NCBI GenBank assembly: GCA_020632265.1
Contig: JACKFW010000001.1
Location: 919,272-983,271, forward strand
From: Pseudomonadales bacterium
GTDB lineage: Bacteria; Patescibacteriota; Microgenomatia; UBA1400; PJMF01
DNA: 64,000 bases
Direction: 5' to 3'
In this document: positions 2,561-42,969 of the stretch, piece after piece
Numbering within the stretch: position 1 is the stretch's first letter
Layout of the letters: every line of letters starts with the position of its first letter
The notes under the pieces: model-generated
Seen by the model: the letters and a program-made list of their open reading frames with translations, nothing else
Told to the model about the DNA's origin: nothing
Databases searched by the model: none
Position numbers and translations under genes: made by a program

Positions 2561-3589
2561 ATGAAAGATTATTCAAAACTTCCAAAAGTTGCACCTGAGT
2601 ATGATTTAACCGATCTTTTAGAGGCAGGTTGTCATTTTGGTCATCAAAAATCTAAGTGGAATCCAAAAATGGCTGAGTTCATTTATATGGAAAAAGATGG
2701 AGTGCATATTTTTGATTTGGAAAAAACTGCAAGTCAACTTCAGTTGGCATATAACTTTGTTTATGACTTAGCTTCTAGGGGAAAAACCATGATTATGGTT
2801 GGTACCAAGAAGCAAGCAAAGCCAATTATTGAAGAAGTTGCTAAGGAAAATGAAGTAATGTATATCACCTCTAGATGGTTGGGTGGATTATTGACCAATT
2901 GGGATCAAGTAAAAAAATCATTAAAAAGAATGTTAAGTATTGGTACTGATTTAAAAGCTGGAAAATATGATGCTTATACTAAATTCGAGAAAGTTCAACT
3001 TGAGAAAGAAGAAATTAGATTGCAAAGATTCTTTGGAGGAATCCAGGAGCTTAAATCAACACCCGACTTTTTGTTCATAGTTGATGTAAAAAGAGAAAAA
3101 AATGCTATTAAAGAAGCATTGTTAATGGGAGTTCCAATTATTGCTCTAATTGATTCAAACGCTGATCCTGAGGACGTAGATATTGCAATTCCTGCAAATG
3201 ACGATGCCTTGAGAAGTATTAATTTTATTGTTTCTGAAATTGCAAAAGCCTATGCTGCTGGTAGAAGATCAATTGATAAATCTGGCAGAGTAGTAGCTGT
3301 TCCAAAGGTTGTTGAAGCAAAAACTCCAGTTGTTGAAGCAAAAACTCCAGTTGTTGAAGCAAAAACTCCAGTTGTTGAAGCAAAAACATTAGAGGTAAAA
3401 GAAGTTACTGAAGCAAAGCCAAAAGTTGTTTCAAAGCCAAAAGCTGAAGCAAAGTCAAATGTTGCTTTAAAAGCAAAACCTGAAGCAAAGTCAAAAGTGA
3501 AAGCTAAGGGAAAACCTGAAGCAAAAGCTATTGAAGCAAAGCCAAAAGCTGCTTTAAAAGCAAAAAAAGTGGTGGTAAAGAAAAAATAA
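2561..3589 (+). CDS. rpsB: 30S ribosomal protein S2 with ~100-aa Lys/Ala-rich C-terminal repeat extension
   Basis: GCHFGHQKSKWNPKM and the conserved S2 core. The C-terminal tail is VVEAKTP x4 followed by KAKPEAKSK-type repeats. Confidence 0.9.
   Translation: MKDYSKLPKVAPEYDLTDLLEAGCHFGHQKSKWNPKMAEFIYMEKDGVHIFDLEKTASQLQLAYNFVYDLASRGKTMIMVGTKKQAKPIIEEVAKENEVMYITSRWLGGLLTNWDQVKKSLKRMLSIGTDLKAGKYDAYTKFEKVQLEKEEIRLQRFFGGIQELKSTPDFLFIVDVKREKNAIKEALLMGVPIIALIDSNADPEDVDIAIPANDDALRSINFIVSEIAKAYAAGRRSIDKSGRVVAVPKVVEAKTPVVEAKTPVVEAKTPVVEAKTLEVKEVTEAKPKVVSKPKAEAKSNVALKAKPEAKSKVKAKGKPEAKAIEAKPKAALKAKKVVVKKK
3308..3388 (+). repeat. Perfect 21-bp tandem repeat (gttgttgaagcaaaaactcca x ~4) inside the rpsB 3' extension
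   Basis: Read directly in the sequence. It encodes the VVEAKTP heptad repeats. Confidence 0.85.
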
Positions 3590-7859: not shown

Positions 7860-8627
7860 GTGAGAAGAAGAGAAAAATTTATTTTTGCATCAATAATATT
7901 GACATTGTCTCTTTTGGGAGTTCAATATATTTCTCTTGATCAAAGATACATTGCCATTGCAATATTTACGATTTTTACATATTTTATTTCAACTTGGGCT
8001 TTGTCAGACGATCTACAGTTACACGAAAGACTAACTGTAGTGCCATTTCCGTCACTTTATGCTGCATCTGTGGCTTTGTTCTACTTTTTGTTGCCGGGCA
8101 ATTTTCTTAGCCAGTTAGCGATACTAGGATTATTTGGTGTTGGAATGTATGCATTGTTTTTAACCTCGAATATTTATTCTGTTGCTAAAGGTAGAACTAT
8201 TCAGCTTTTTCATGCAGCTCAGGCTATTGGTTCAATCTTTGGAGTATTAATTTCACTACTTTTTTCGAACACAATTTTCTCCCTGAAATTACCATTTTAT
8301 CTGAATGGCTTACTTGTAGGCCTTGTTCATTTTCCGTTAATTTTCTTGTTACTTTGGTCAGTTAGGCTTGAGAGTAAAGTAACAAAAGAATTAGTTAATT
8401 TTTCACTGATCCTTAATTTAGTATTAATTGAATTGGCGATGGTTTTATCATTCTTCCCAATGACTGTCTGGTATAGCTCATTGTTTATTATGTCCTTTTT
8501 TTACATTGGACTAGGGCTGATGCAAAGTTTTATCAGGGGAAGACTTTTTATCAGGACTTTTGTGGAATATTCATTAGTGGCAATATTTGTAGGATTAATG
8601 TTTATTTTAATCTTTCCGTATAAATAA
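7860..8627 (+). CDS. Polytopic membrane protein, function unknown (GTG start)
   Basis: 255-aa ORF that is almost entirely hydrophobic helices. No recognisable motif. Confidence 0.35.
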   Translation: MRRREKFIFASIILTLSLLGVQYISLDQRYIAIAIFTIFTYFISTWALSDDLQLHERLTVVPFPSLYAASVALFYFLLPGNFLSQLAILGLFGVGMYALFLTSNIYSVAKGRTIQLFHAAQAIGSIFGVLISLLFSNTIFSLKLPFYLNGLLVGLVHFPLIFLLLWSVRLESKVTKELVNFSLILNLVLIELAMVLSFFPMTVWYSSLFIMSFFYIGLGLMQSFIRGRLFIRTFVEYSLVAIFVGLMFILIFPYK

Positions 8628-9876
8628 ACCTCAAGAAATTTCAATAGCAGACGTGAACTCACTGATTAAGGCCAAGATTCTTTAGAAGAGCACAGGACTT
8701 TTGAAAGACTTTTCTGTTCACATTCTAGTTTCTAAGTCTCTAGACATCCTATAATATAGATAGAGAAGACCAGGGTAAATTACGATTTTTTGCCTGGAGA
8801 TTATAAATTCCTAGTTATAGTGAAAATTCAGCTGAAATTAATTAATTGACATCAAATGTTAACATTAAAATAAATAAGTTTGAATATTTCAAAAAATATT
8901 TCAATAATAAATGGAGGAGAGGTAAAATATTTTTTGATATTAACCAGGCGGAGAAGGGATCAATGATATAGTTTGATATATTAAGAATTGATATAGTTTG
9001 ATATAGGGTAGAGACCTATAATAAATTGTGGATAACTTAATAAATTATAGGACTTAATCAATTATTTACTCGAGTAATTATAAATCTTTACTGAATTATT
9101 AAATTATTCGATGCAAGAATAATAAAAACAAAACAATTGATGGTTGACCACCTCTAGTGGGGAGGTATTTCCAGATATATCTGGTCTGAAAAAAATAATT
9201 TCCATCGTAGTCGTGAAAAGAGCGTGAAAAGAATAAAACCCGAATGCATATTTTTCCAAATAAGTACTTTTTTGAAGACTGTCGAGAGAGCTTTTTCAGG
9301 TATGGCAGATATTTGAACAGCAGTACTATTAGTGTGGCAGTGGTACAGAAATTGCGCCTTAATAAAAAATATTGAAATTTTGAAAAGATATATTACCCTA
9401 TTTAACAGTGGGGTACGAATCTTTGATTTACGTTATGTCGCACAATATTACTTTTACGACGTAAACACAATTTTGTCGATGGAGGTTGTTTCAATGTTCC
9501 TTTTATAAATAAATCTATATTTTGATATTTCAGGCTGAAAAATTGATTTTCCGACTTTTTTATTTATCAATTCTCTTTTTTAAGGATGCCATTATGAAAT
9601 GTTCAGTATTTTTGAATTTCTAACAACTTTTTTATAAATTCTATATTTTGAGTCATTAAGAATGCTTTTGATACCATTTTCTTTATTATTTTGATGATCA
9701 ATTAGCCATCAAAATAATAAAAAGCCGTTTTTGAGGCTATGAAATGGCTTTAATCTGGAGTGAACGAAAAATTAGCTCTATAATGCTTATTAATTGTATA
9801 TTTTATGTTATTTAATTTCTGAGAATTATTTTTTTGATTTTTTATGTTATTCAGTTTCTGAGAGTTAATTTTCTTT

Positions 9877-9982
9877 TTGACAATTTGTGTTTGGCAAATT
9901 TTTATGAATCGTTTTTTTTGACAATTTGTGTTTGGCAAATTTTTATGAATCGTTTTTTTTGACAATTTGTGTTTGGCAAAAA
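9877..9982. repeat. 41-bp tandem repeat (ttgacaatttgtgtttggcaaatttttatgaatcgtttttt, ~2.6 copies)
   Basis: Copies start at 9877, 9918 and 9959 with period 41. Each unit carries a TTGACA hexamer and a TTGGCAAA motif. Confidence 0.8.
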
Positions 9983-10908
9983 TTTGCAAATAGTTTTTAT
10001 TTTCAATGTTTAACTCTAATTAAGTATTTTCGTCAATATTTTGAATTTTTAAACATTTTGAATTTTCAAACATTTTGAATTAGTGCACTCAAAAATATTT
10101 TGTTAAATGTTAAAATATTTTCACATATTATTTTTAAATATCAGCTGACAGTTAATTTTGATATTTAGGACTTATCAAACTACATTCTCTTAGTAACTAG
10201 TTTTTATGATATTTGGAAATTTAATGAATCTATTTAACGAATATTCGTATCTCGTTGCTAAAACAAAGTATTTTGGACTTGTACCAACTTGTATTATTTT
10301 ATTGTTGAATTTATATTGTAAACAATTTTTATATTAGTAATTTTGCAAAATTATTTGACGATAGATTTTATCAAAAAAAATATTTAACATTTTGCAAAAA
10401 TCTTATAAAATGTTTCAAAATTATATTGTAAGAAAAAATTTTCTTACATATGTTTGATACAAAAATAATTCATTGTTAATATTTAGATACATAAAATATT
10501 AGTCTAAAAACATTTTAAATTTAAAAAATAGGGGATAAAATCTTTTAAGAAAGCTACTCTCTTATTTAATTGAAATTACCATTTTCAAATTATTTGCAAA
10601 ACTTTTAGTTGCAATTTATTATATAAAATTATGTCGCACAATTATTTTTTATTGTGTATACTAATATTAATTGAGAGTAGCTTGTGAGTTTATAAATCAT
10701 TTTTTTCATCTCCCCTACTCCGATGACTTTTTAATATTTACGTAAGGCCTATTATTTGAAAATTATATAATAATTGATATACAATAATATCAAAAGATAT
10801 CACTTATTTTAGTTGGATGTAGCCGTCCATGACCCTGAAAGATACAATTAGCAAACAAATCAATAGACTGCTAAAATCTCATAGTATTCTATTAGAAAAT
10901 TAATATAT

Positions 10909-11844
10909 ATGCCCGTCTCTACTATCCCACAAATTGCTCTTGTAACCTTTTTAGAACATTTGGAAGTTGAAAGAAATGTGAGTCGACTAACAATTAGAAA
11001 CTATTCTCATTATTTACGAAGATTTAATCAGTGGTTTGAAAGCCGTGGTCATAAGGATTTGAGAGAATTAAATCAGGATATTGTTAGAAGTTATCGCGTT
11101 TATCTTTCTAGATATTCTGATGATCAGGGTAGAACTTTGTGTAAACGAACTCAAAGTTATTACATAATTTCACTTAGATCGTTGTTAAAATTTATGGTGA
11201 AAAATGATATTCCGGTGCTACATCCGGAGAAAATTGATTTACCAAAAGCTGAATCTAAACACATGAAATTTTTGAATATGGAAAAAATTGAACGACTTTT
11301 GTCTCAGCCACTTTTGTCAAAAAAAGGAGGACTTAGAGACAAGGCTATTTTAGAAGTTTTATTTTCAACTGGTCTTCGTGTTAGCGAGTTGGTTGGATTA
11401 AATCGTGATCAAATTGATTTAAAGTCAAGAGAATTTGGAGTTATTGGTAAAGGTCGTAGACCAAGGGTTGCGTTTTTAAGCCACAGAGCTGTTGATTGGT
11501 TAAGAAGATATTTGAATTCGAGAGAAGATAATTGGCAACCGATATTTATTAGATATTCTGGTCAAAAACCCGATTTACTTTCGGATGGTGAAGAAATGAG
11601 ACTTACTTCGAGAAGTGTTCAGCGGTTAGTAGATAAATATTGTCGTAAAGCTAAATTGCCAATCAAAATTAGTCCACATGGAATCAGGCACAGCTTTGCA
11701 ACAGATTTGTTAACAAATGGGGCTTCCCTTAGAGACGTCCAGGAGATGTTGGGTCATAAAAATATTGCTACTACCCAGATATACACTCATGTCACTCAAC
11801 CACAATTAAAGAAGATTCATGACGAGCGTCATAGCGATTTTTAA
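10909..11844 (+). CDS. Tyrosine site-specific recombinase, XerC/XerD family
   Basis: C-terminal catalytic region HGIRHSFATDLLTNGASLRDVQEMLGHKNIATTQIYTHV (R..H..R..Y) and an N-terminal SAM-like core-binding domain. Confidence 0.8.
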   Translation: MPVSTIPQIALVTFLEHLEVERNVSRLTIRNYSHYLRRFNQWFESRGHKDLRELNQDIVRSYRVYLSRYSDDQGRTLCKRTQSYYIISLRSLLKFMVKNDIPVLHPEKIDLPKAESKHMKFLNMEKIERLLSQPLLSKKGGLRDKAILEVLFSTGLRVSELVGLNRDQIDLKSREFGVIGKGRRPRVAFLSHRAVDWLRRYLNSREDNWQPIFIRYSGQKPDLLSDGEEMRLTSRSVQRLVDKYCRKAKLPIKISPHGIRHSFATDLLTNGASLRDVQEMLGHKNIATTQIYTHVTQPQLKKIHDERHSDF

Positions 11845-12016: not shown

Positions 12017-12090
12017 GGGCCTGTGGCGCAGCTGGTTAGCGTGTCTGTATGGCATACAGAAGGTCAGGGGTTCGAATCCCCTCAGGTCCA
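12017..12090 (+). tRNA. tRNA-Ala (anticodon GGC), no encoded CCA
   Basis: Hand-folded cloverleaf: acceptor GGGCCTG/CAGGTCC with the G3:U70 Ala identity pair; anticodon stem TCTGT/ACAGA with loop ATGGCAT; T-arm AGGGGTTCGAATCCCCT. Confidence 0.85.
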
Positions 12091-12125
12091 CATAATTGAA
12101 ATTTGATTGAAGCTTTTTTTCTATA

Positions 12126-12210
12126 CAGATACTTGACTACTTACGCAGATACTTGACTACTTGTGCAGATTTTTGACTTCTTACACAAATATTTGACTTT
12201 TTGTGTTGAT
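12126..12210. repeat. ~20-bp tandem repeat (cagatacttgactacttacg x ~4, degenerating) between tRNA-Ala and the gyrA 3' end
   Basis: Read directly in the sequence. Each unit contains TTGACT. Confidence 0.7.
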
Positions 12211-12319: not shown

Positions 12320-15184
12320 TTATTCTTCTCCTTCAGCTTTTTTGAATGTCAAGGCAACTGCTGCGACCTTATTGTTACTCTTGAGTCTCATTAAAATGAC
12401 ACCCTGAGTTGGTCTGGTTAGTGTAGGAATAGATTTTTTGGTTAATGGCAATTTGATAGTTTGTCCTTCCCTAGTAGTGATCACGACTTCTTTATGTTCG
12501 TCGGAATTTACTTTTCGCGCACTTGCGACTAAACCAGTTCGTTTGGTGATGTCTGCAACTTTGACTCCCATGCCAGAGCGTTTTTGTTTTGGATATTGAT
12601 CTAATTTAGTTCTTTTGCCCATGCCGTTTTCAGTGACTAGAAGTAGTTGACTTTTGCATTGACTATCATCAATTTCCTCTTGAGAAATTACTTCAAAACC
12701 AACTACATAATCATCTTTTTTGATTGTGATACCTTTAACACCCTTAGTATCTCTTTGACTTGATTTAACTTCTTTTTCAGAAAATCGAATTGATTTTCCA
12801 TTATGTGTGATTAACATAATGTCATTTTCACCTGTGGTTAACATGCCCTTAACCAAAGAGTCGTCATCATTTAATGTGATTGCAATGATTCCATTTTGTC
12901 TAATATTTCCAAATAATTTCACAGGTGTTTTCTTAATTAATCCCTTGACAGTTGCAAGAACAATAAACCTTTCTTGATCTTTTTCTTCATTAACCACCAA
13001 GATTGAAAGTACTTTTTCTTCAGCCTTGAGACTAAGGATATTTACTACAGCAGTCCCTTTAGCTGTTCTTGAAGATTCAGGAATTTCAAATGCTTTAAGT
13101 CTAAATACTCTGCCCATGTCTGTGAAAACTAGCAAGGTATCGTGTGTTTCAACTGTTAAGAGGGTTTGTACTACATCTTCATCTTTCATTTTTACACCAA
13201 CACTCCCCTTGCCTCCTCTAGATTGAGATCTAAATGAACTTGGACTAAGACGCTTGATATATCCAGTTTCAGTTAGGGTAATCACTGCTTCTTCATTTGG
13301 TACGAGGTCTTGTTCGGAAAACTCACCAATTTTTCCCTTAACAAGCCTGGTTCTTCTCTCATCTCCATAAAGACTGACTAATTCATTGGCTTCATCAACA
13401 ATGACTTTAAGAATTTCTTTTGGATTATCGAGCAGTTTTATTAAGTCATCAAGAATTTTTTTGATCGCTTCATACTCTTCTTCAATTTTCAATCTCTCAA
13501 GTGCAGCTAAACGCTTAAGTTGCATTTCTAAAATTGCTAATGATTGTAGCTCAGAGAGACCAAATTTTTTCATTAATGCTTCTTTAGCATCTTCAGTTGT
13601 TTTTGATTTTCTGATTGTGTCGATAACATCATCAAGATTTGCTAAGGCAATCAATAGTCCTTCTAAAATATGTGCTCTGTTTCGAGATTCTTCAAGATTA
13701 TATTGACTTCTCTTCACGATCATTTGTTGTCGATGCTTGATGTATTCCATCAAAATTTGACGAATATTCATTAATTGTGGAGTGCCATTACTATTAAGTG
13801 CCACCATGTTCATAGAAAAACTGGTTTGAAGTTCGGAATATTTGAATAATTTATTTAGCACAACCTTTGGTCTAGCATCTCTTTTGAGTTCAATGGTAAT
13901 TTGAAGCCCATTTCTGTCGGAGTCATCATTCAAATCTTTGATGCCTGTGATTTTTTTATCCCTCACTAAACTTGCAATTTTTTGCAACAATCTAGCTTTG
14001 TTGACCTGATATGGAAGCTCAGTCACTATTATTTGATATTGTCCTTTGTTATCTTCCTCAATTTTAGTTTTTGCTCTAATGACAACTTTACCTTTTCCGG
14101 TCTGGTAACCTTCCTTAATTGCATTGAAATCGTAAATAATACCTGCGGTTGGGAAATCAGGACCATTAATGTGTTCCATAATTTCATCAATTGTAATTTC
14201 AGATTCGAAGTTGCCAGAAAGAATTGAAGAATCAGTTTCAAGCAAAGCATCGATTTGAGCATGCATGCTTTTTATTTCATCATCTTTGTTATTATTACTC
14301 TTTGGGGTAGCTTCTTTTCTAATTGGTAGAACAAATTTACCTTCCTCGATTTTTGACTCTCCTTTATTAATCGTAGCAATGATTGCATTAATTACTTCAG
14401 TTAAATTGTGTGGTGGAATTTTAGTAGCCATTCCTACGGCAATTCCTTCTGAACCCATAAGCAAGAGATTTGGAAGTTTTCCAGGCAAAACAGTTGGCTC
14501 TTTAAGTGAACCGTCAAAGTTATCAATAAAAGGAACGGTATTTTTATCAATATCAACCAAGAGTTCTCTGGTAATTTTTTCCATTCTGGCTTCGGTGTAA
14601 CGCATAGCGGCTGGAGAGTCTCCGTCAACAGATCCAAAGTTACCTTGACCATCAATTAATTCATATCTCATGCTGAAATCTTGAGCTAAACGAACCATTG
14701 CCATGTAGACTGGAGCATCGCCGTGTGGGTGATATTTACCTAAGACATCTCCCACAATACGAGCAGATTTCTTATATGAACTATTCCAATGAATTCCAGT
14801 TTTATGCATGGAAAATAGAATACGTCTGTGTACTGGTTTTAATCCATCTCTAACGTCTGGTAACGCACGCGAAACGATCACGCTCATGGCGTAATCTAGG
14901 TAACTTTTTTCCATCTCACTTTTAATTGAGATGTATTTCATTTTTCCAAATTTTGTTTCTTCGATAGTGCCTATTAAAGATTGTTTAACTTCTTGCGATT
15001 GTGATTCTTGAGAAGCATTTTCAGATTCAGAATTTTCAGAATTTTCACCATTATTTGTTTCATCGGAGATATTATTATTTTCAGGCATAACCTTTTTATC
15101 AACTTTTACTTCATCGTCAGTTAAGTTTTCGATTGCTACCTTAATTTGCTTTTCATTGTCTTTTTTATTTTTTTTGTCTGCCAT
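12320..15184 (-). CDS. gyrA: DNA gyrase subunit A with ~80-aa low-complexity N-terminal extension
   Basis: [45 protein letters not shown] plus the C-terminal beta-pinwheel repeats. The N-terminus is K/N/E/S-rich. Confidence 0.95.
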
Positions 15185-34486: not shown

Positions 34487-36115
34487 TTATTCTTCAAAAA
34501 ATTCCGGATATGCTGCAATTACTTTAGTAAATTCAATAGGTGCTGATGGATAATTATAACCCTCTCCAAGGGATTGTTTAGCACGATCAAAGCGCGTAGA
34601 CGAGAACATAGTACGATATGCAGCGTCACGCGCAGCACTTTGTGTATGTTCTCTTTGTGTTTCAAAATCAAGCCCAAAAATTTGTGTTCCAGCGAAAAAT
34701 ATTGTGTTTAAGACATTACCGGCACCAATATTATTGCTATCCACTTCCACCATTCCCTCACCAACCTGGACTATATGATAGATAATATTAGGCTTAGCTG
34801 GATCTATAAATATGCCTACGCCAGATTTATTGTCGTCTGAACCAATTATATACGGCAAAACCAAGCGAACTTCTGTGCCATCGGTAAGTGTGGCATTAAA
34901 CCATCTGGCTTCAGATCCAGGAACTACATCAAATATAGAAATAATTTTAAGTTCTGGACCGAGATTAAACGGAATTTCCAAATATCCGTTGGTCTTCAAA
35001 TCTAACACTGGCATGAGATAACTTAAAGTATCTCCATCACCGCTTAATGAATTTTCCACTTCTTCTCTTGTGACATTGGGATTAATATCTAGAATCCTAG
35101 CAAGAAAAATTTCAGCCAAATATTTGTTAAATAACTCAACACTATCTGGTCTTGTTAATTCTAAAGTACCCAATGTCCCAATAACTTGTTCTGAAAACTC
35201 TTTGGTAAAATACATTTCATGGTGAGGACCAAACTCATCCCCTAACAATGTTCCTTCTCCTTCATGTCCAATAAAAGATGCAATCTCTGTTTCCCCCAAC
35301 AAAGCTTCTTCAACAGTATCGTAGCGTTTAGCTTCTATTTCCTCAGCTACTAGAGCCATAGTATCTTCTGTTGCTTCAGCTTCATTTGTTTCAACCGTAG
35401 TATCTTGTGTTGCTTCAGCTTCAGATGTTGTTGTAGTAGTTGGTGCAGGTGTACCATCACTTTCTGATAGAAACCATTCGTGATTTGTTGGTTCTGGTGT
35501 AACTTGTTTACCAATTATGAGTTCGCCGTTATCGTTTGTACCATATACATAAGTGGTGCCTTTATTTGAACGCACTACTAAAGCAGTTACTATTTTAGCT
35601 TGATGTTTTTCTGCCCAATCAATTGCCTCTTGCAATGGTATTCTAGTTGATACTATCTCATTTTCAGGAGTTTTAGTTAGAACAATTGTTTCATCTCCTA
35701 CATTAAAAAAGGCTACTGTATTTCCATTATCAACAAATTCAATATTTGATTCAGGAGTTGCTCCTTCTTCTATCGCAGCTTCTAAAAAATCAGAATCTGT
35801 AATAGTTGTCATGGGTGGTTCGGGAGGCGTTGATCCCGATGATGCTTCAGGTTGTTCGGGAGGCGTTGATCCTGATGGTGCTTCAGAAGTAGGAGCCTCT
35901 CGAGCTGCAACTGGTGGGATGCCACCACTTTGATTCGTAATTGCTTCTGGATCTTCGACTAAACTAGCTGGATTATTTGGGATATCTTGATCCACTTGTC
36001 GGGGTGTATCACAAGAAGATGTAGTTATTAAAATAAATGCAAATAAAATAAAACCAACTGCTTGCTGCATTTTATGATGTTCACTTAGAAAATGCTTAAT
36101 ATTGTCGTGCCCCAT
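34487..36115 (-). CDS. Lipoprotein-like secreted hypothetical protein (542 aa) with Pro/Glu/Thr-rich repeats
   Basis: Signal plus near-lipobox MQQAVGFILFAFILITTSSC, then EAPSGSTPPEQPEASSGSTPPEPP repeats. Sits upstream in the same operon as the giant protein. Confidence 0.4.
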   Translation of the reverse strand: MGHDNIKHFLSEHHKMQQAVGFILFAFILITTSSCDTPRQVDQDIPNNPASLVEDPEAITNQSGGIPPVAAREAPTSEAPSGSTPPEQPEASSGSTPPEPPMTTITDSDFLEAAIEEGATPESNIEFVDNGNTVAFFNVGDETIVLTKTPENEIVSTRIPLQEAIDWAEKHQAKIVTALVVRSNKGTTYVYGTNDNGELIIGKQVTPEPTNHEWFLSESDGTPAPTTTTTSEAEATQDTTVETNEAEATEDTMALVAEEIEAKRYDTVEEALLGETEIASFIGHEGEGTLLGDEFGPHHEMYFTKEFSEQVIGTLGTLELTRPDSVELFNKYLAEIFLARILDINPNVTREEVENSLSGDGDTLSYLMPVLDLKTNGYLEIPFNLGPELKIISIFDVVPGSEARWFNATLTDGTEVRLVLPYIIGSDDNKSGVGIFIDPAKPNIIYHIVQVGEGMVEVDSNNIGAGNVLNTIFFAGTQIFGLDFETQREHTQSAARDAAYRTMFSSTRFDRAKQSLGEGYNYPSAPIEFTKVIAAYPEFFEE

Positions 36116-36396
36116 ACTTTTTAATCCTATATTTTTATAATTAATGATTTGTTGTTAATAAATTTTTTTATTTATAGTCTTTAATATTTTTTAATTTGAT
36201 CTTACCCTAATTATATAACATAGTCTTATAATAAATCAATATATATCAAATACACATTACGATTTTTAATAGTAATCATATCAGAAGTTCTAATATACTA
36301 TGATTATATATGACAATATAACAAAATGACAAAGTGACTTCAATAATGTTGATCAAGATCTTATTTTAGATTTTGTTTAAATTTATGCATTTATTG

Positions 36397-36969
36397 TCAA
36401 TATAAATTCTTTTGATTATTTTTATCCATATTTTGAGAAATAAGTTTTCTAATAAACGATGCTTTAGAAATCCCTTCTTTTTTTGAATATTCCTGAATAT
36501 GGGAACTTAATTTTGGTGAAAGCATGAGATTAAAGCGAGATTTTCCTTGATTGTTAGCAAAACTTATTGAATCATTAAGGATTTTTTTTAAATTTTTGGG
36601 TTCATATTCAATTAATTGAAAATTGTCGTCTTCTATTCCTAAAATAAATCCTGGTTCATGTTTATTAATGTATAATGCAATAACTGGAATTCTAAGGTCT
36701 AAAGCATACTTTATCAAATATCCCATCGTTAAACTATGAGTAGATACTTCTAAGATTACAACTTCAGATTTTTTTATTAATTTTAATGCGTTATTGTGTA
36801 CTTCAGTTTTGTGATTATCAGATGAGGAATAAAATTTATTTGGATCAGTATTAATTTCATAATTATCAGTGTTTTTATGTTCAAGGTTTGAAATTAAATT
36901 ATGAATGATTTTATAGTTTAGTTTGATTTCTTTTGGCGCTCTTGCAGATGCAGTAAAATATATATTCAT
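36397..36969 (-). CDS. Flavodoxin-fold (TIR / nucleoside-2-deoxyribosyltransferase-like) domain fused to a C-terminal ribbon-helix-helix: paralog A
   Basis: Start re-called at MNIYFTAS by alignment with paralog B (track ORF extends 13 aa further). Shares IFYTAS.R, SEVVILEVSTHSL(T/S)MG, PVIALY and IEY with B. The tail RFNLMLSPKLSSHIQEYSKKEGISKASFIRKLI has an RHH beta-alpha-alpha pattern. Confidence 0.45.
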   Translation of the reverse strand: MNIYFTASARAPKEIKLNYKIIHNLISNLEHKNTDNYEINTDPNKFYSSSDNHKTEVHNNALKLIKKSEVVILEVSTHSLTMGYLIKYALDLRIPVIALYINKHEPGFILGIEDDNFQLIEYEPKNLKKILNDSISFANNQGKSRFNLMLSPKLSSHIQEYSKKEGISKASFIRKLISQNMDKNNQKNLY

Positions 36970-36982
36970 AATATTATTTTTT

Positions 36983-37954
36983 TCAATAATTTTTGCTGTC
37001 ACAAACAATTTTAATTTGAAAGAATCCGTGAAAACTTATTTTTGGCAATCCAATATATTCAATTTTAATATTTTTGAAACCACATTTATTAAGAAGAAAT
37101 TTCCATTCTGAAACGCTCTTAAATTGAAAAGGTAGATTCATTTTAGTAAGTCCTTGAGTCACGATATTTCCATAAAAATCCATTAACATGACCGACTCCA
37201 TTTGAGATTTTGGAGATAAATTCAAGAATTGTTCAGTGATTTTCTTGTTTTTATTGAGATTATTTTTTTTAATGTATTTAGAGTCAAAAACATCTTCAAT
37301 GATAATGAGTCTTTTGGAAATTTTAGAAAGTTCAGTAATTGTGTTGATAAGATTGCTTTTTGATATATGATGTAAAACAGTTATTAATATTGATGTATCA
37401 TTTTTGATAATTCTTTTTGAGATGTCTGAAGAAGAATTAATTTTGATGAATGGAATACTGCTTTGTTTGATTTCTCTATAATCTAATACATCACTTGAGA
37501 TAATTTTAAATCCTTTATCCAGAATCAATTTTGACATATAGCCTTTACCAGAGCCAAAATCAAGAATTTTTTCTCCTATAATGTCATTCTTTATTATTGA
37601 ATAGTAATAGTTTGGTTTCAAAAATGATTTATACAAATCATATTCTTTATAAAACTCTTCGGCCTTATTCTTTGAATAAATATTTTTTGAAATAAAGTTA
37701 ATTGAATTTTTAAGATTTATGATACTTAGATTCTTTTGTTGACTTTCTTGTAGAATTTTAAAAGTTTGATCAATTAATATTGAAGAATATTTATTTGATG
37801 AAAATATACAATGATAATGCTCTGTAATAACATATTTAACAAATTCAATTACATTTTCATTTCTTAATAATTTACATAGATTTATACTATTTACAACATC
37901 AGTAAGAATAGTTTCCGAATGAAAGTTCTGAATTATATTATTTCGAAATGTCAT
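36983..37954 (-). CDS. Class I SAM-dependent methyltransferase
   Basis: Motif I ILDFGSGKGYMS followed by an acidic residue at the end of beta2 (KIISSDVLD). 323 aa. Directly upstream of paralog A on the same strand. Confidence 0.6.
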   Translation of the reverse strand: MTFRNNIIQNFHSETILTDVVNSINLCKLLRNENVIEFVKYVITEHYHCIFSSNKYSSILIDQTFKILQESQQKNLSIINLKNSINFISKNIYSKNKAEEFYKEYDLYKSFLKPNYYYSIIKNDIIGEKILDFGSGKGYMSKLILDKGFKIISSDVLDYREIKQSSIPFIKINSSSDISKRIIKNDTSILITVLHHISKSNLINTITELSKISKRLIIIEDVFDSKYIKKNNLNKNKKITEQFLNLSPKSQMESVMLMDFYGNIVTQGLTKMNLPFQFKSVSEWKFLLNKCGFKNIKIEYIGLPKISFHGFFQIKIVCDSKNY

Positions 37955-38001
37955 GTAGTTAAAGTATAATTAAAAATCGTAGGTTGGAATTATAACAGAA
38001 A

Positions 38002-42408: not shown

Positions 42409-42969
42409 TTACTTAGCTTCTTCTTTTTCAGTTTCAACAACTTTAGTTTTTTTTATTGCTGGACTTGTTGAAACTGCTACTGCTTCAGCTATTTCTACTG
42501 CGGGTTCAACAACTTCTGCTACTGCTTCAGCTATTTCTACTGCGGGTTCAACAACTTCTGCTACTGCTTCAGCTATTTCTACTGCGGGTTCAACAACTTC
42601 TGTAGAAGGCTCTGCAACTTCTGTTGGAGTTTTTACAGTTTTCTCCACAGGTTTATTAGCAGCTTCTTTTTCTGCAATTAGTTTTGCTTTAGCTTTTTTT
42701 GATAAAGTATTAGTCTTTTTTGGAAAAGGATTTCCAGATTTAAAGCGTTTAAATAATGAAGCTACGGTGTCTGTTGGTTGAGCACCTTTTGCCAACCATT
42801 CTTCGAATGCTTTTACATCGATTTCTAATATTTTTGGAGTTTGTGCTGGAGAATAATGACCAATTAGAGCCATATATTCACCATCACGTTTTGTTCGTGC
42901 TTCGTTAACAATGATACGAAAGTGTGGTTGGTTCTTTTTACCAAAACGTGCTAATTTGATTTTCAACAT
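42409..42969 (-). CDS. rpsP: 30S ribosomal protein S16 with ~100-aa C-terminal repeat extension
   Basis: MLKIKLARFGKKNQPHFRIIVNEARTKRDGEYMALIGHYSP is the canonical S16 N-terminus. The tail has three VEPAVEIAEAVAEV repeats. Confidence 0.85.
   Translation of the reverse strand: MLKIKLARFGKKNQPHFRIIVNEARTKRDGEYMALIGHYSPAQTPKILEIDVKAFEEWLAKGAQPTDTVASLFKRFKSGNPFPKKTNTLSKKAKAKLIAEKEAANKPVEKTVKTPTEVAEPSTEVVEPAVEIAEAVAEVVEPAVEIAEAVAEVVEPAVEIAEAVAVSTSPAIKKTKVVETEKEEAK
42476..42601. repeat. Perfect 42-bp x3 tandem repeat inside the rpsP 3' extension
   Basis: gctactgcttcagctatttctactgcgggttcaacaacttct repeated at 42476, 42518 and 42560. Confidence 0.85.

Follow-up and report, generated by a model that had tools for sequence, protein, structure and literature searches.

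The DNA analysed here, referred to as the window, is a stretch of 64,000 nucleotides (nt) of contig JACKFW010000001.1 (positions 919,272 to 983,271) from a member of the class Microgenomatia, a low-GC patescibacterial genome of Microgenomates/Pacebacteria type. It contains a gap without genes at positions 8628-10908, which lies between a DUF5656 multi-pass membrane-protein gene (7860-8627, plus strand) and xer (10909-11844, plus strand), the gene of a 311-residue XerC/XerD-like tyrosine recombinase. In this work we describe a conserved 32-bp dyad within the gap and propose it as a dif-like recombination site for the neighbouring Xer. The GC content of the window is about 33% and dips to 0.27 and 0.22 in the 9-11 kb interval. 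No open reading frame (ORF) of at least 80 amino acids is found from the stop of the DUF5656 gene (8627) to the ATG of xer (10909). The longest one is a 79-residue frame with a TTG start at 9750-9989 on the minus strand, placed on top of tandem arrays, which bears out the original prediction, made from the letters alone, both in stating that the gap holds no convincing gene and in remarking that the frame at 9750-9989 overlaps repeats. The order it gave for the other side, a recombinase followed by a tRNA-Ala and a 20-bp array, is also correct: tRNA-Ala(GGC) occupies 12017-12091 and a lineage-specific array of 3.7 copies of 20 nt occupies 12126-12205, both annotated on the plus strand and both outside the site. 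The sequence of the region is genuine and no assembly artefact, because a contig from a second, independent sample is 100% identical to the window over 9951-10908; short-read contigs of the same species end within the region at about 9468, 9540 and 9951, at or beside the tandem arrays.

A total of 80 species-level loci around Xer homologues was fetched, and some 190 to 200 related loci (denoted below by L and a number) were compared in all; an examination of sister genomes for the presence of the block had been suggested. The gene order TPR - YebC - DUF5656 - gap - xer - gyrA - DHH - gyrB - holB-like is kept across the Microgenomates, in Pacebacteria, Woese-, Gottesman-, Collier-, Levy-, Shapiro- and Chisholmbacteria, with the DUF5656 gene as the invariant left neighbour of the site. 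The gap is conserved and non-coding. It ranges from 1 to 6.5 kb among genomes and measures at least about 960 nt in every related locus, and in the related loci it is mostly ORF-poor with a GC content below that of its surroundings. Comparing the window with the loci by blastn and nhmmer yields collinear conserved blocks across 8890-9770, and the tandem arrays prove to be lineage-specific, as detailed below. It is this class-wide conservation of gap and motifs that is decisive against chance, whereas the individual repeats are indecisive. In a slightly diverged strain (L005) differences are seen at window positions 8800-8860 and 8930-8950 and the stretch 8950-9540 is nearly identical; the differences are patchy, therefore constraint is uneven even at strain level.

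The core dyad, TTATGTCGCACAATATTACTTTTACGACGTAA, is located at 9433-9464 on the plus strand and consists of a left arm ATGTCGCACAA (9435-9445) and a right arm TTTTACGACGT (9452-9462), 11 bp each, around the asymmetric 6-bp spacer TATTAC (9446-9451). It is present as a single copy in 72/72 xer-anchored loci reaching far enough upstream, and the logo of 72 distinct sequences reads TTAT-GTCGCACAA-TAWWAC-TTTTRCGAC-RTAA. Some 24 positions hardly vary, even in loci with as little as 58% Xer identity, and the information content of the logo falls to background directly outside the 32 bp. The consensus arms are inverted with respect to each other, ATGTCGCACAA and ATGTCGCAAAA (the reverse complement of TTTTGCGACAT) matching at 10 of 11 positions. 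An 11-6-11 layout defines dif (PMC2731167); the dyad likewise presents two inverted arms of about 11 bp, a centre within the 6-8 bp found in dif sites and an intergenic location. In addition, CGCAcAA in the inner part of the left arm is similar to CGCATAA, the XerC arm of the E. coli dif GGTGCGCATAATGTATATTATGTTAAAT (PMC2731167).

The locus was also sampled site-first, using the exact pattern GTCGCACAATAWWACTTTTRCGAC against metagenome contigs. At least 120 contigs matched, each with one copy of the dyad; DUF5656 lies upstream of it in 66/66 testable contigs, and xer follows downstream on the same strand in 42 of the 44 that could be tested. No second full site was found in any locus (about 190 loci, 2.26 Mb, including the 64-kb window), all other matches to the core having at least 6 mismatches in 24, and no viral contig carries the core site. 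The distance from dyad to xer varies from 0.25 to 6 kb among related loci, with conserved motifs in between. For these genomes the 24-nt core is probably a near-universal marker present in single copy; it is adjoined by AT-rich repeats in which short-read assemblies tend to break.

Besides the full site, extra inverted left-arm half-sites occur near the core in some relatives, at about +236 nt in L013, L014, L016 and L017, at -502 in L008 and L009, and at about -560 to -600 in L058 and L060. Paired half-sites are also seen in relatives, 17-21 nt apart where the dyad has 6, and the loci with extra or paired half-sites further include L055 (9523-9571), L085 (7753), L087 (8696) and L086 (9923-9965). 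They may be pseudo-sites or accessory Xer-binding sites.

Concerning the recombinase, Xer is 58-93% identical across the class, a conservation similar to that of gyrase/GyrB, and combines a SAM-like with a catalytic domain. The R, K, HxxR, H and Y residues are all present across the class, within the motifs GLRVSE, GKG, HGIRHS, LGH and IYTH, and the intact active site that a dif site calls for in its cognate Xer-family recombinase is found in this protein. The window Xer scores 244 bits with the XerD model and 243 bits with the XerC model, both below the equivalog cutoffs, 205 bits with XerA (cutoff 220) and 117 bits with XerS (cutoff 267), the last of which places it outside the XerS/XerH family. 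Its C-terminus is devoid of the RQ..QQ residues of XerD, which have been linked to FtsK contact (PMC5357621).

A copy of the left arm appears to mark the xer promoter. The 14-mer TTATGTCGCACAAT (10629-10642), an exact repeat of the sequence at 9433, is followed by the extended -10-like TGTGTATACT (10653-10662) on the plus strand, and this unit (10629-10662), kept in L008-L011, is proposed as the xer promoter with a Xer half-site operator. In distant clades the half-site reads GTCGCACAAT-nTTGACA-N17-TAnnnT, directly abutting a canonical -35. An exact half-site lies at most 400 nt from the xer ATG in 35/69 loci, the background being 0.004 per 400 nt, and GTCGCAMAA is found in the 64-kb window at the dyad and at the xer-promoter copy and nowhere else. 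The motif thus seems to be tied to xer expression, the simplest reading being that Xer binds it and autoregulates; judging from the position of the half-site, Xer probably represses its own gene.

On the left-arm side of the core, at 150-500 bp, there is an oriented cluster composed of TGATATAG repeats, a DnaA box, CGTGAAAA repeats and AAACCCGAAT. The TGATATAG direct repeats (8964-9006, plus strand) are exact at 8964, 8989 and 8999, with TGATATAT at 8974 and a 10-nt spacing within pairs; the two copies of TGATATAGTTTGATATA previously listed around 8960-9010 are indeed there, at 8964 and 8989. Among related loci, TGATATAG is found on the plus strand upstream of the core in 65/69. The DnaA box TTATCCACA (9027-9035, minus strand; TGTGGATAA on the plus strand) lies between the two members of an inverted pair, CCTATAAT (9015-9022) and ATTATAGG (9044-9051), and the earlier count of a single consensus box agrees with ours, this being the sole perfect one in 64 kb. 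Because TGTGGA[TA]AA has a background of 0.01 per kb and is conserved in 65/69 loci, always upstream of the core and on the plus strand, the single box is far from chance. Most loci have one DnaA-box match and rarely two, and near-matches in the whole window are unenriched (28 vs 20.7 expected). Closer to the core, TCGTGAAAAGAGCGTGAAAAG, made of two CGTGAAAA units (9211-9232), is followed by AATAAAACCCGAATG (the whole at 9211-9247, plus strand), and the AAACCCGAA block keeps a near-constant distance from the core, being found in 48/69 loci at a median of -194 (about 190 nt). The short hairpin reported at 9150-9170 is also present, as small hairpins and palindromes at 9148-9185. No consistently placed sigma-70 promoter was found upstream of the core.

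Several other words were considered. The window carries TTGATAT-N6-ATATCAA at 10774-10793 and many relatives have a palindrome ATTGATATATCAAT near the terminator block described below; both have the half-site TTGATATA in common with the TGATATAG repeats upstream, which hints that one protein may bind palindrome and repeats alike. GAGAAGGG occurs once in the window (8951-8958), 480 nt left of the core and pointing at it, and is kept in L008, L010 and nearly in L011, which may be coincidence; it matches the recognition sequence of B. subtilis SpoIIIE. TAGCCTGG has zero copies in the 64-kb window. Polar words resembling FtsK-orienting polar sequences (KOPS) were dropped, since the flip of GAAGAAG between the left side (5:1) and the right side (6:15) involves small counts and is confounded by the coding strand.

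Downstream of the core, the related loci show a palindrome (consensus GATGAnCAATTGnTCATC) and a terminator-like hairpin block, AAAAGCCGnTTTTG, which is inverted in some lineages. In the window the unit at 9682-9765 holds a 15-nt perfect inverted repeat (9682-9696 / 9707-9721) followed by AAAAGCCGTTTTTG (9720-9733), the second being the bidirectional terminator-like block, which separates the core from a variable spacer. The 'AAAAGCCG' block was rejected as a specific element, as it is a generic bidirectional terminator-like hairpin that is found elsewhere in the loci as well; TTAGCCTGGTA recurs in both orientations in related gaps (e.g. the 9855 region of L013, L021 and L034), often just after terminator-like hairpins, and is absent from the window.

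The spacer (9780-10620) is AT-rich and lineage-specific, and no conserved function was detected in it. It carries three tandem arrays: one of 39 nt (2.1 copies, 9787-9867), absent from the original prediction, one of 41 nt (2.6 copies at 100% identity, 9874-9980), correctly reported there at 9877-9982, and one of 17 nt (2.6 copies, 10038-10081). Of three copies of AAACATTTTGAATT listed around 10040-10090 two are exact, and the third reads CAATATTTTGAATT. Neither a nucleotide nor a translated counterpart of 9780-10620 was found in about 200 loci (blastn, tblastx), which leads us to reject pseudogene remnants in the AT-rich part, and the spacer is unalignable to the nearest species, L008 and L009, whose Xer proteins are 89-93% identical. 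Elsewhere its counterpart is short or filled by ordinary genes, for instance those of UDP-glucose dehydrogenase and of an epimerase, an AP-endonuclease-2-like gene and unknowns. The 20-nt array 3' of tRNA-Ala is equally without conservation, even in the nearest species. That the 41-nt copies are perfectly identical suggests recent slippage, and the AT-rich arrays would be products of it in a hypervariable spacer between terminator-like block and xer promoter, with no conserved role.

In order to locate the site with respect to replication, GC skew was computed at four-fold degenerate sites and split into coding-strand and strand-independent terms, since raw skew is confounded by gene strand. 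On the right side of the window the strand-independent skew is about +0.13 (21 plus-strand and 22 minus-strand genes), and on the left side the plus-strand genes have 85 G vs 78 C, with about 54 G expected had the polarity flipped. Pooling some 70 genomes gives a strand-independent skew of +0.23 on both sides, and in single loci it is almost always positive to the left as well as to the right, L020, which corresponds to CP011212, included. There is consequently no GC-skew switch at the locus, be it in the window, in the pool or per locus, and a terminus is not supported because G predominates on one and the same strand to either side. The site is about 110 kb from the end of the CP011212 record and about 150 kb from the start of BOKR01000001. 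No dnaA or ftsK was identified by Pfam among the window proteins, nor within 10 kb in 208 loci by tblastn, a weak negative as the E. coli probes are approximate and had no positive control.

Two departures from the common skew pattern were seen. In L056 the strand-independent skew is negative on both sides (-0.42, -0.29), the xer strand being G-rich in nearly all others, and its block seems to be inverted relative to replication. L057, L058, L060, L068, L074 and L082 show a very strong same-strand excess of G over C, with a whole-locus skew of up to +0.38, which resembles the strand disparity of Ch65, Collierbacteria and Beckwithbacteria (PMC7143001).

On this basis we favour, with moderate confidence, the view that the dyad is the cognate recombination site of the adjacent XerC/D-like recombinase, presumably the single one, so that together they would form a linked xer/dif-type module. 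A dif site genetically linked to xer has been described as characteristic of single-recombinase systems (PMC5357621; PMC2731167). Following the mechanism inferred from the Xer family, each arm would be bound by one Xer monomer, synapsis would bring together two site copies carried by a chromosome dimer or by linked sisters, and strand exchange across the spacer would resolve the dimer or unlink the sisters. The left-arm copy abutting or overlapping the -35 region of the xer promoter would allow Xer to repress its own gene. The weakest step concerns the upstream cluster, which may be a set of protein-binding sites, with DnaA among the binders, serving as accessory or regulatory sequence. Since the locus is off the skew switch, such a cluster could replace control by terminus and FtsK, providing positional, cell-cycle or topological control by analogy with the plasmid sites cer and psi. 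The suggestion of a dif region, which the original prediction had put forward among others, survives in part: a Xer core of canonical architecture linked to xer exists, at 9433-9464, which had not been flagged, and off the skew switch.

Four points weigh against this proposal. The first is precisely that a locus away from the skew switch fails a defining feature of bacterial dif. Second, dimer resolution alone leaves the conserved upstream cluster unexplained. Third, the core is on the opposite strand with respect to xer in four loci (L051 9086-9117, L052 9291-9322, L053 9215-9246 and L072 at about 9536), in which the flanking motifs keep their orientation; flipping the asymmetric spacer by point mutation would need at least 4 substitutions, and a flipped core is awkward for an orientation-dependent accessory mechanism. 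Finally, the xer-promoter half-site could serve a different protein as its operator.

This last point leads to the alternative that fares best, although we consider it unlikely, namely that dyad and half-sites are a DNA-binding or regulatory platform without strand exchange, formed either by transcription factor operators or by binding sites of a Xer acting non-catalytically, e.g. as an SMC roadblock or unloader. B. subtilis XerD has non-recombination roles at half-sites. A half-site at the xer promoter, an apparent location in mid-replichore and not at the terminus, and the many palindromes and repeats nearby that look like protein sites would all suit such a platform. However, a 32-bp 11-6-11 element whose asymmetric spacer is conserved fits the usual form of tyrosine-recombinase cores and is long for an operator, the full site lies 0.5-6 kb from the xer promoter with a terminator-like block in between, and all the catalytic residues of Xer are kept across the class.

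A different explanation involves replication. Kadnikov et al. described a monotonic cumulative GC skew in several Microgenomates genomes, for which an adjacent origin and terminus or unidirectional theta replication were proposed, neither of them located (PMC7143001). The locus might be an origin, or a co-located origin and terminus of mostly one-way replication firing rightwards, with the dif-like site resolving dimers. The conserved and oriented DnaA box and TGATATAG repeats, the AT-rich, ORF-free DNA, gyrA, gyrB and holB next door, and a skew of one sign to the left and right, which replication in a single direction predicts, are in keeping with this, as is the monotonic skew of some Microgenomates (PMC7143001). 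We nonetheless rate it as very improbable. An oriC has several DnaA boxes with an AT-rich unwinding element and sits at a GC-skew minimum, often beside dnaA/dnaN, whereas here loci have mostly one or two boxes (a single perfect one in the window), no skew switch is seen, and the approximate search gave no dnaA within 10 kb. Furthermore, the same architecture and same-sign skew are found in CP011212, a genome whose skew is reported to be of the usual V-shaped, two-extreme form (PMC7143001), and the reversed skew on both sides of L056 is unexpected if the locus sets the direction of replication. The earlier idea of a plasmid-like replication or partition locus with iterons finds faint support in DnaA box and TGATATAG repeats, which are truly conserved, but it has against it the few boxes, the failure to find a dnaA within 10 kb and the missing skew switch. 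In its most specific form, the locus would be the junction where Microgenomates replication starts and ends, with a one-way fork fired by DnaA bound at the conserved box beside the TGATATAG repeats and a Xer site resolving dimers where the fork returns; this would explain both the monotonic skew and the same sign on both sides, and we regard it as a long shot. A milder version is a dimer-resolution or unlinking site near the origin, beside the gyrase genes, that would be independent of FtsK and controlled by accessory sequences.

It seems highly improbable that the region is a long 5' untranslated region of xer or the source of structured non-coding RNA, be it one species or several. It is true that conserved blocks are split by variable stretches, that the CCTATAAT motifs look like -10 boxes and that hairpin plus T-run elements can be seen by eye upstream of the core in many loci. 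Yet the Rfam scan that had been advised returned the tRNA alone, both at the gathering threshold and at E<=10; RNAalifold with 36 species over -300..+60 gave zero consensus pairs, and on five sub-blocks, in either strand, none besides the dyad. The arms themselves vary among species with frequent C·A (plus strand) or A·C (minus strand) combinations, such that neither strand keeps a helix, and both the lack of a consistently placed sigma-70 promoter and the terminator-like block between core and xer speak against a transcript of this kind.

Least credible of all is a mobile-element scar, be it a mobile element that integrates by way of Xer (IMEX) at dif, a tRNA-Ala island with integrase or decayed genes, as the integration site proposed earlier would imply: a recombinase stands beside a tRNA, the AT-rich part lies between the two copies of an exact 14-nt direct repeat (9433, 10629) and the gap varies from genome to genome, but the recombinase is class-wide, syntenic and highly conserved, the second copy is a half-site only and present even in minimal gaps, no second full site was found that could bracket an insert, the genes in enlarged gaps are ordinary ones whose Pfam hits include no mobile-element family, no viral contig has the site, the tRNA is upstream-facing, restricted to a Pacebacteria-like clade and found in either orientation, and the AT-rich part has no translated similarity in the loci compared. 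As a separate observation, L009 has at about 11420-11460 a second copy of the tRNA 3' end (…GAATCCCCTCAGGTCCACATAAT), about 100 nt past tRNA-Ala and followed by a palindrome; in that species an element at the tRNA may have left it as an att-type scar.

Returning to the linked xer/dif-type module, its properties can be compared with those of the known Xer systems. XerS/difSL of streptococci and lactococci and XerH/difH of Helicobacter and Campylobacter share with it a single Xer (presumed here), a near-palindromic core in non-coding DNA linked to the recombinase gene (PMC5357621; PMC2731167) and inner arm ends rich in A/T (…CAA / TTTT…). They differ in the recombinase, about 350 amino acids compared with a XerC/D-like protein of 311, and in the site, which for difSL and difH is 31 bp with an 11-bp centre compared with 11-6-11. 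The Microgenomates site, moreover, is 0.25-6 kb away from xer with conserved motifs in between, and off the GC-skew peak at which difSL and difH are located.

The XerCD/dif system of E. coli and B. subtilis has a 28-bp, 11-6-11, intergenic and unique site with the most conserved positions in the inner arms, and these traits are found here, uniqueness within the loci compared, as is the resemblance of CGCAcAA to the XerC arm. In contrast, XerCD/dif has distinct XerC and XerD arms, lies at the terminus and skew switch, and has the FtsK-linked RQ..QQ C-terminus in XerD, whereas here the two arms are similar and a single recombinase is presumed, the location is neither of those and Xer is without these residues. 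The flanks of proteobacterial dif are unconserved (PMC2731167), and here they are conserved.

Archaeal XerA/dif, also with a single Xer and a 28-bp dif, is FtsK-independent (PMC5357621), and the Sulfolobus dif lies outside the termination or fork-fusion zones (PMC3020120), comparable to the position off the skew switch seen here. Nevertheless, the XerA score of the window Xer is below both the cutoff and its XerC/XerD scores, the context is bacterial, and the xer linkage and upstream motif cluster found here are not described for XerA in the review and abstracts consulted (PMC5357621; PMC3020120).

The plasmid sites cer and psi, in turn, have a Xer core with one-sided accessory DNA of a few hundred bp, cer being a 280-bp non-coding region with accessory proteins and resolution independent of FtsK and of position (PMC5357621). 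Any such likeness would be functional only: the present site is chromosomal, its cluster is further off (150-500 bp), the motifs are unrelated to ArgR, PepA and ArcA sites and include a DnaA box, and in four lineages the core is flipped relative to the cluster. Overall, the module differs from all described bacterial systems in being off the skew switch, in its oriented, class-wide cluster with a DnaA box and in its place beside the gyrase genes.

Other parts of the window deserve a brief description. A second AT-rich stretch, at 36001-38000 (GC 0.235), is covered by minus-strand ORFs (36397-37008 and 36983-37954) without Pfam match. The genes of ribosomal proteins S2 (2561-3589) and S16 (42409-42969) have long in-frame tandem-repeat extensions, e.g. 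21 nt x3.8 at 3308-3387 and 42 nt x3.1 with 100% identity at 42474-42602. GyrA (12320-15184) has 954 amino acids, and its topoisomerase domain starts at residue 106 and is matched as two separate stretches, suggestive of an extended N-terminus plus an insertion within the domain. A large cluster similar to type IV pilus and type II secretion systems extends from 20035 to 42093 and comprises two PilB-like ATPases, PilC, a prepilin peptidase, several pseudopilins, PilM and PilO, broken up by large unannotated proteins.

A search of the accessible literature for dif or Xer sites in the candidate phyla radiation (CPR)/Patescibacteria found no description. If the proposal is true, it would provide a Xer-site sequence for the class Microgenomatia, with the invariant address DUF5656 - site - xer - gyrA/gyrB, as well as a likely autoregulatory half-site. 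A site off the skew switch with oriented flanking motifs points to a control of Xer that does not rely on terminus position, a matter of interest for both Xer recombination and CPR chromosome biology. The locus is also a testable candidate for the origin or terminus that has not been located in the Microgenomates genomes with monotonic skew (PMC7143001).

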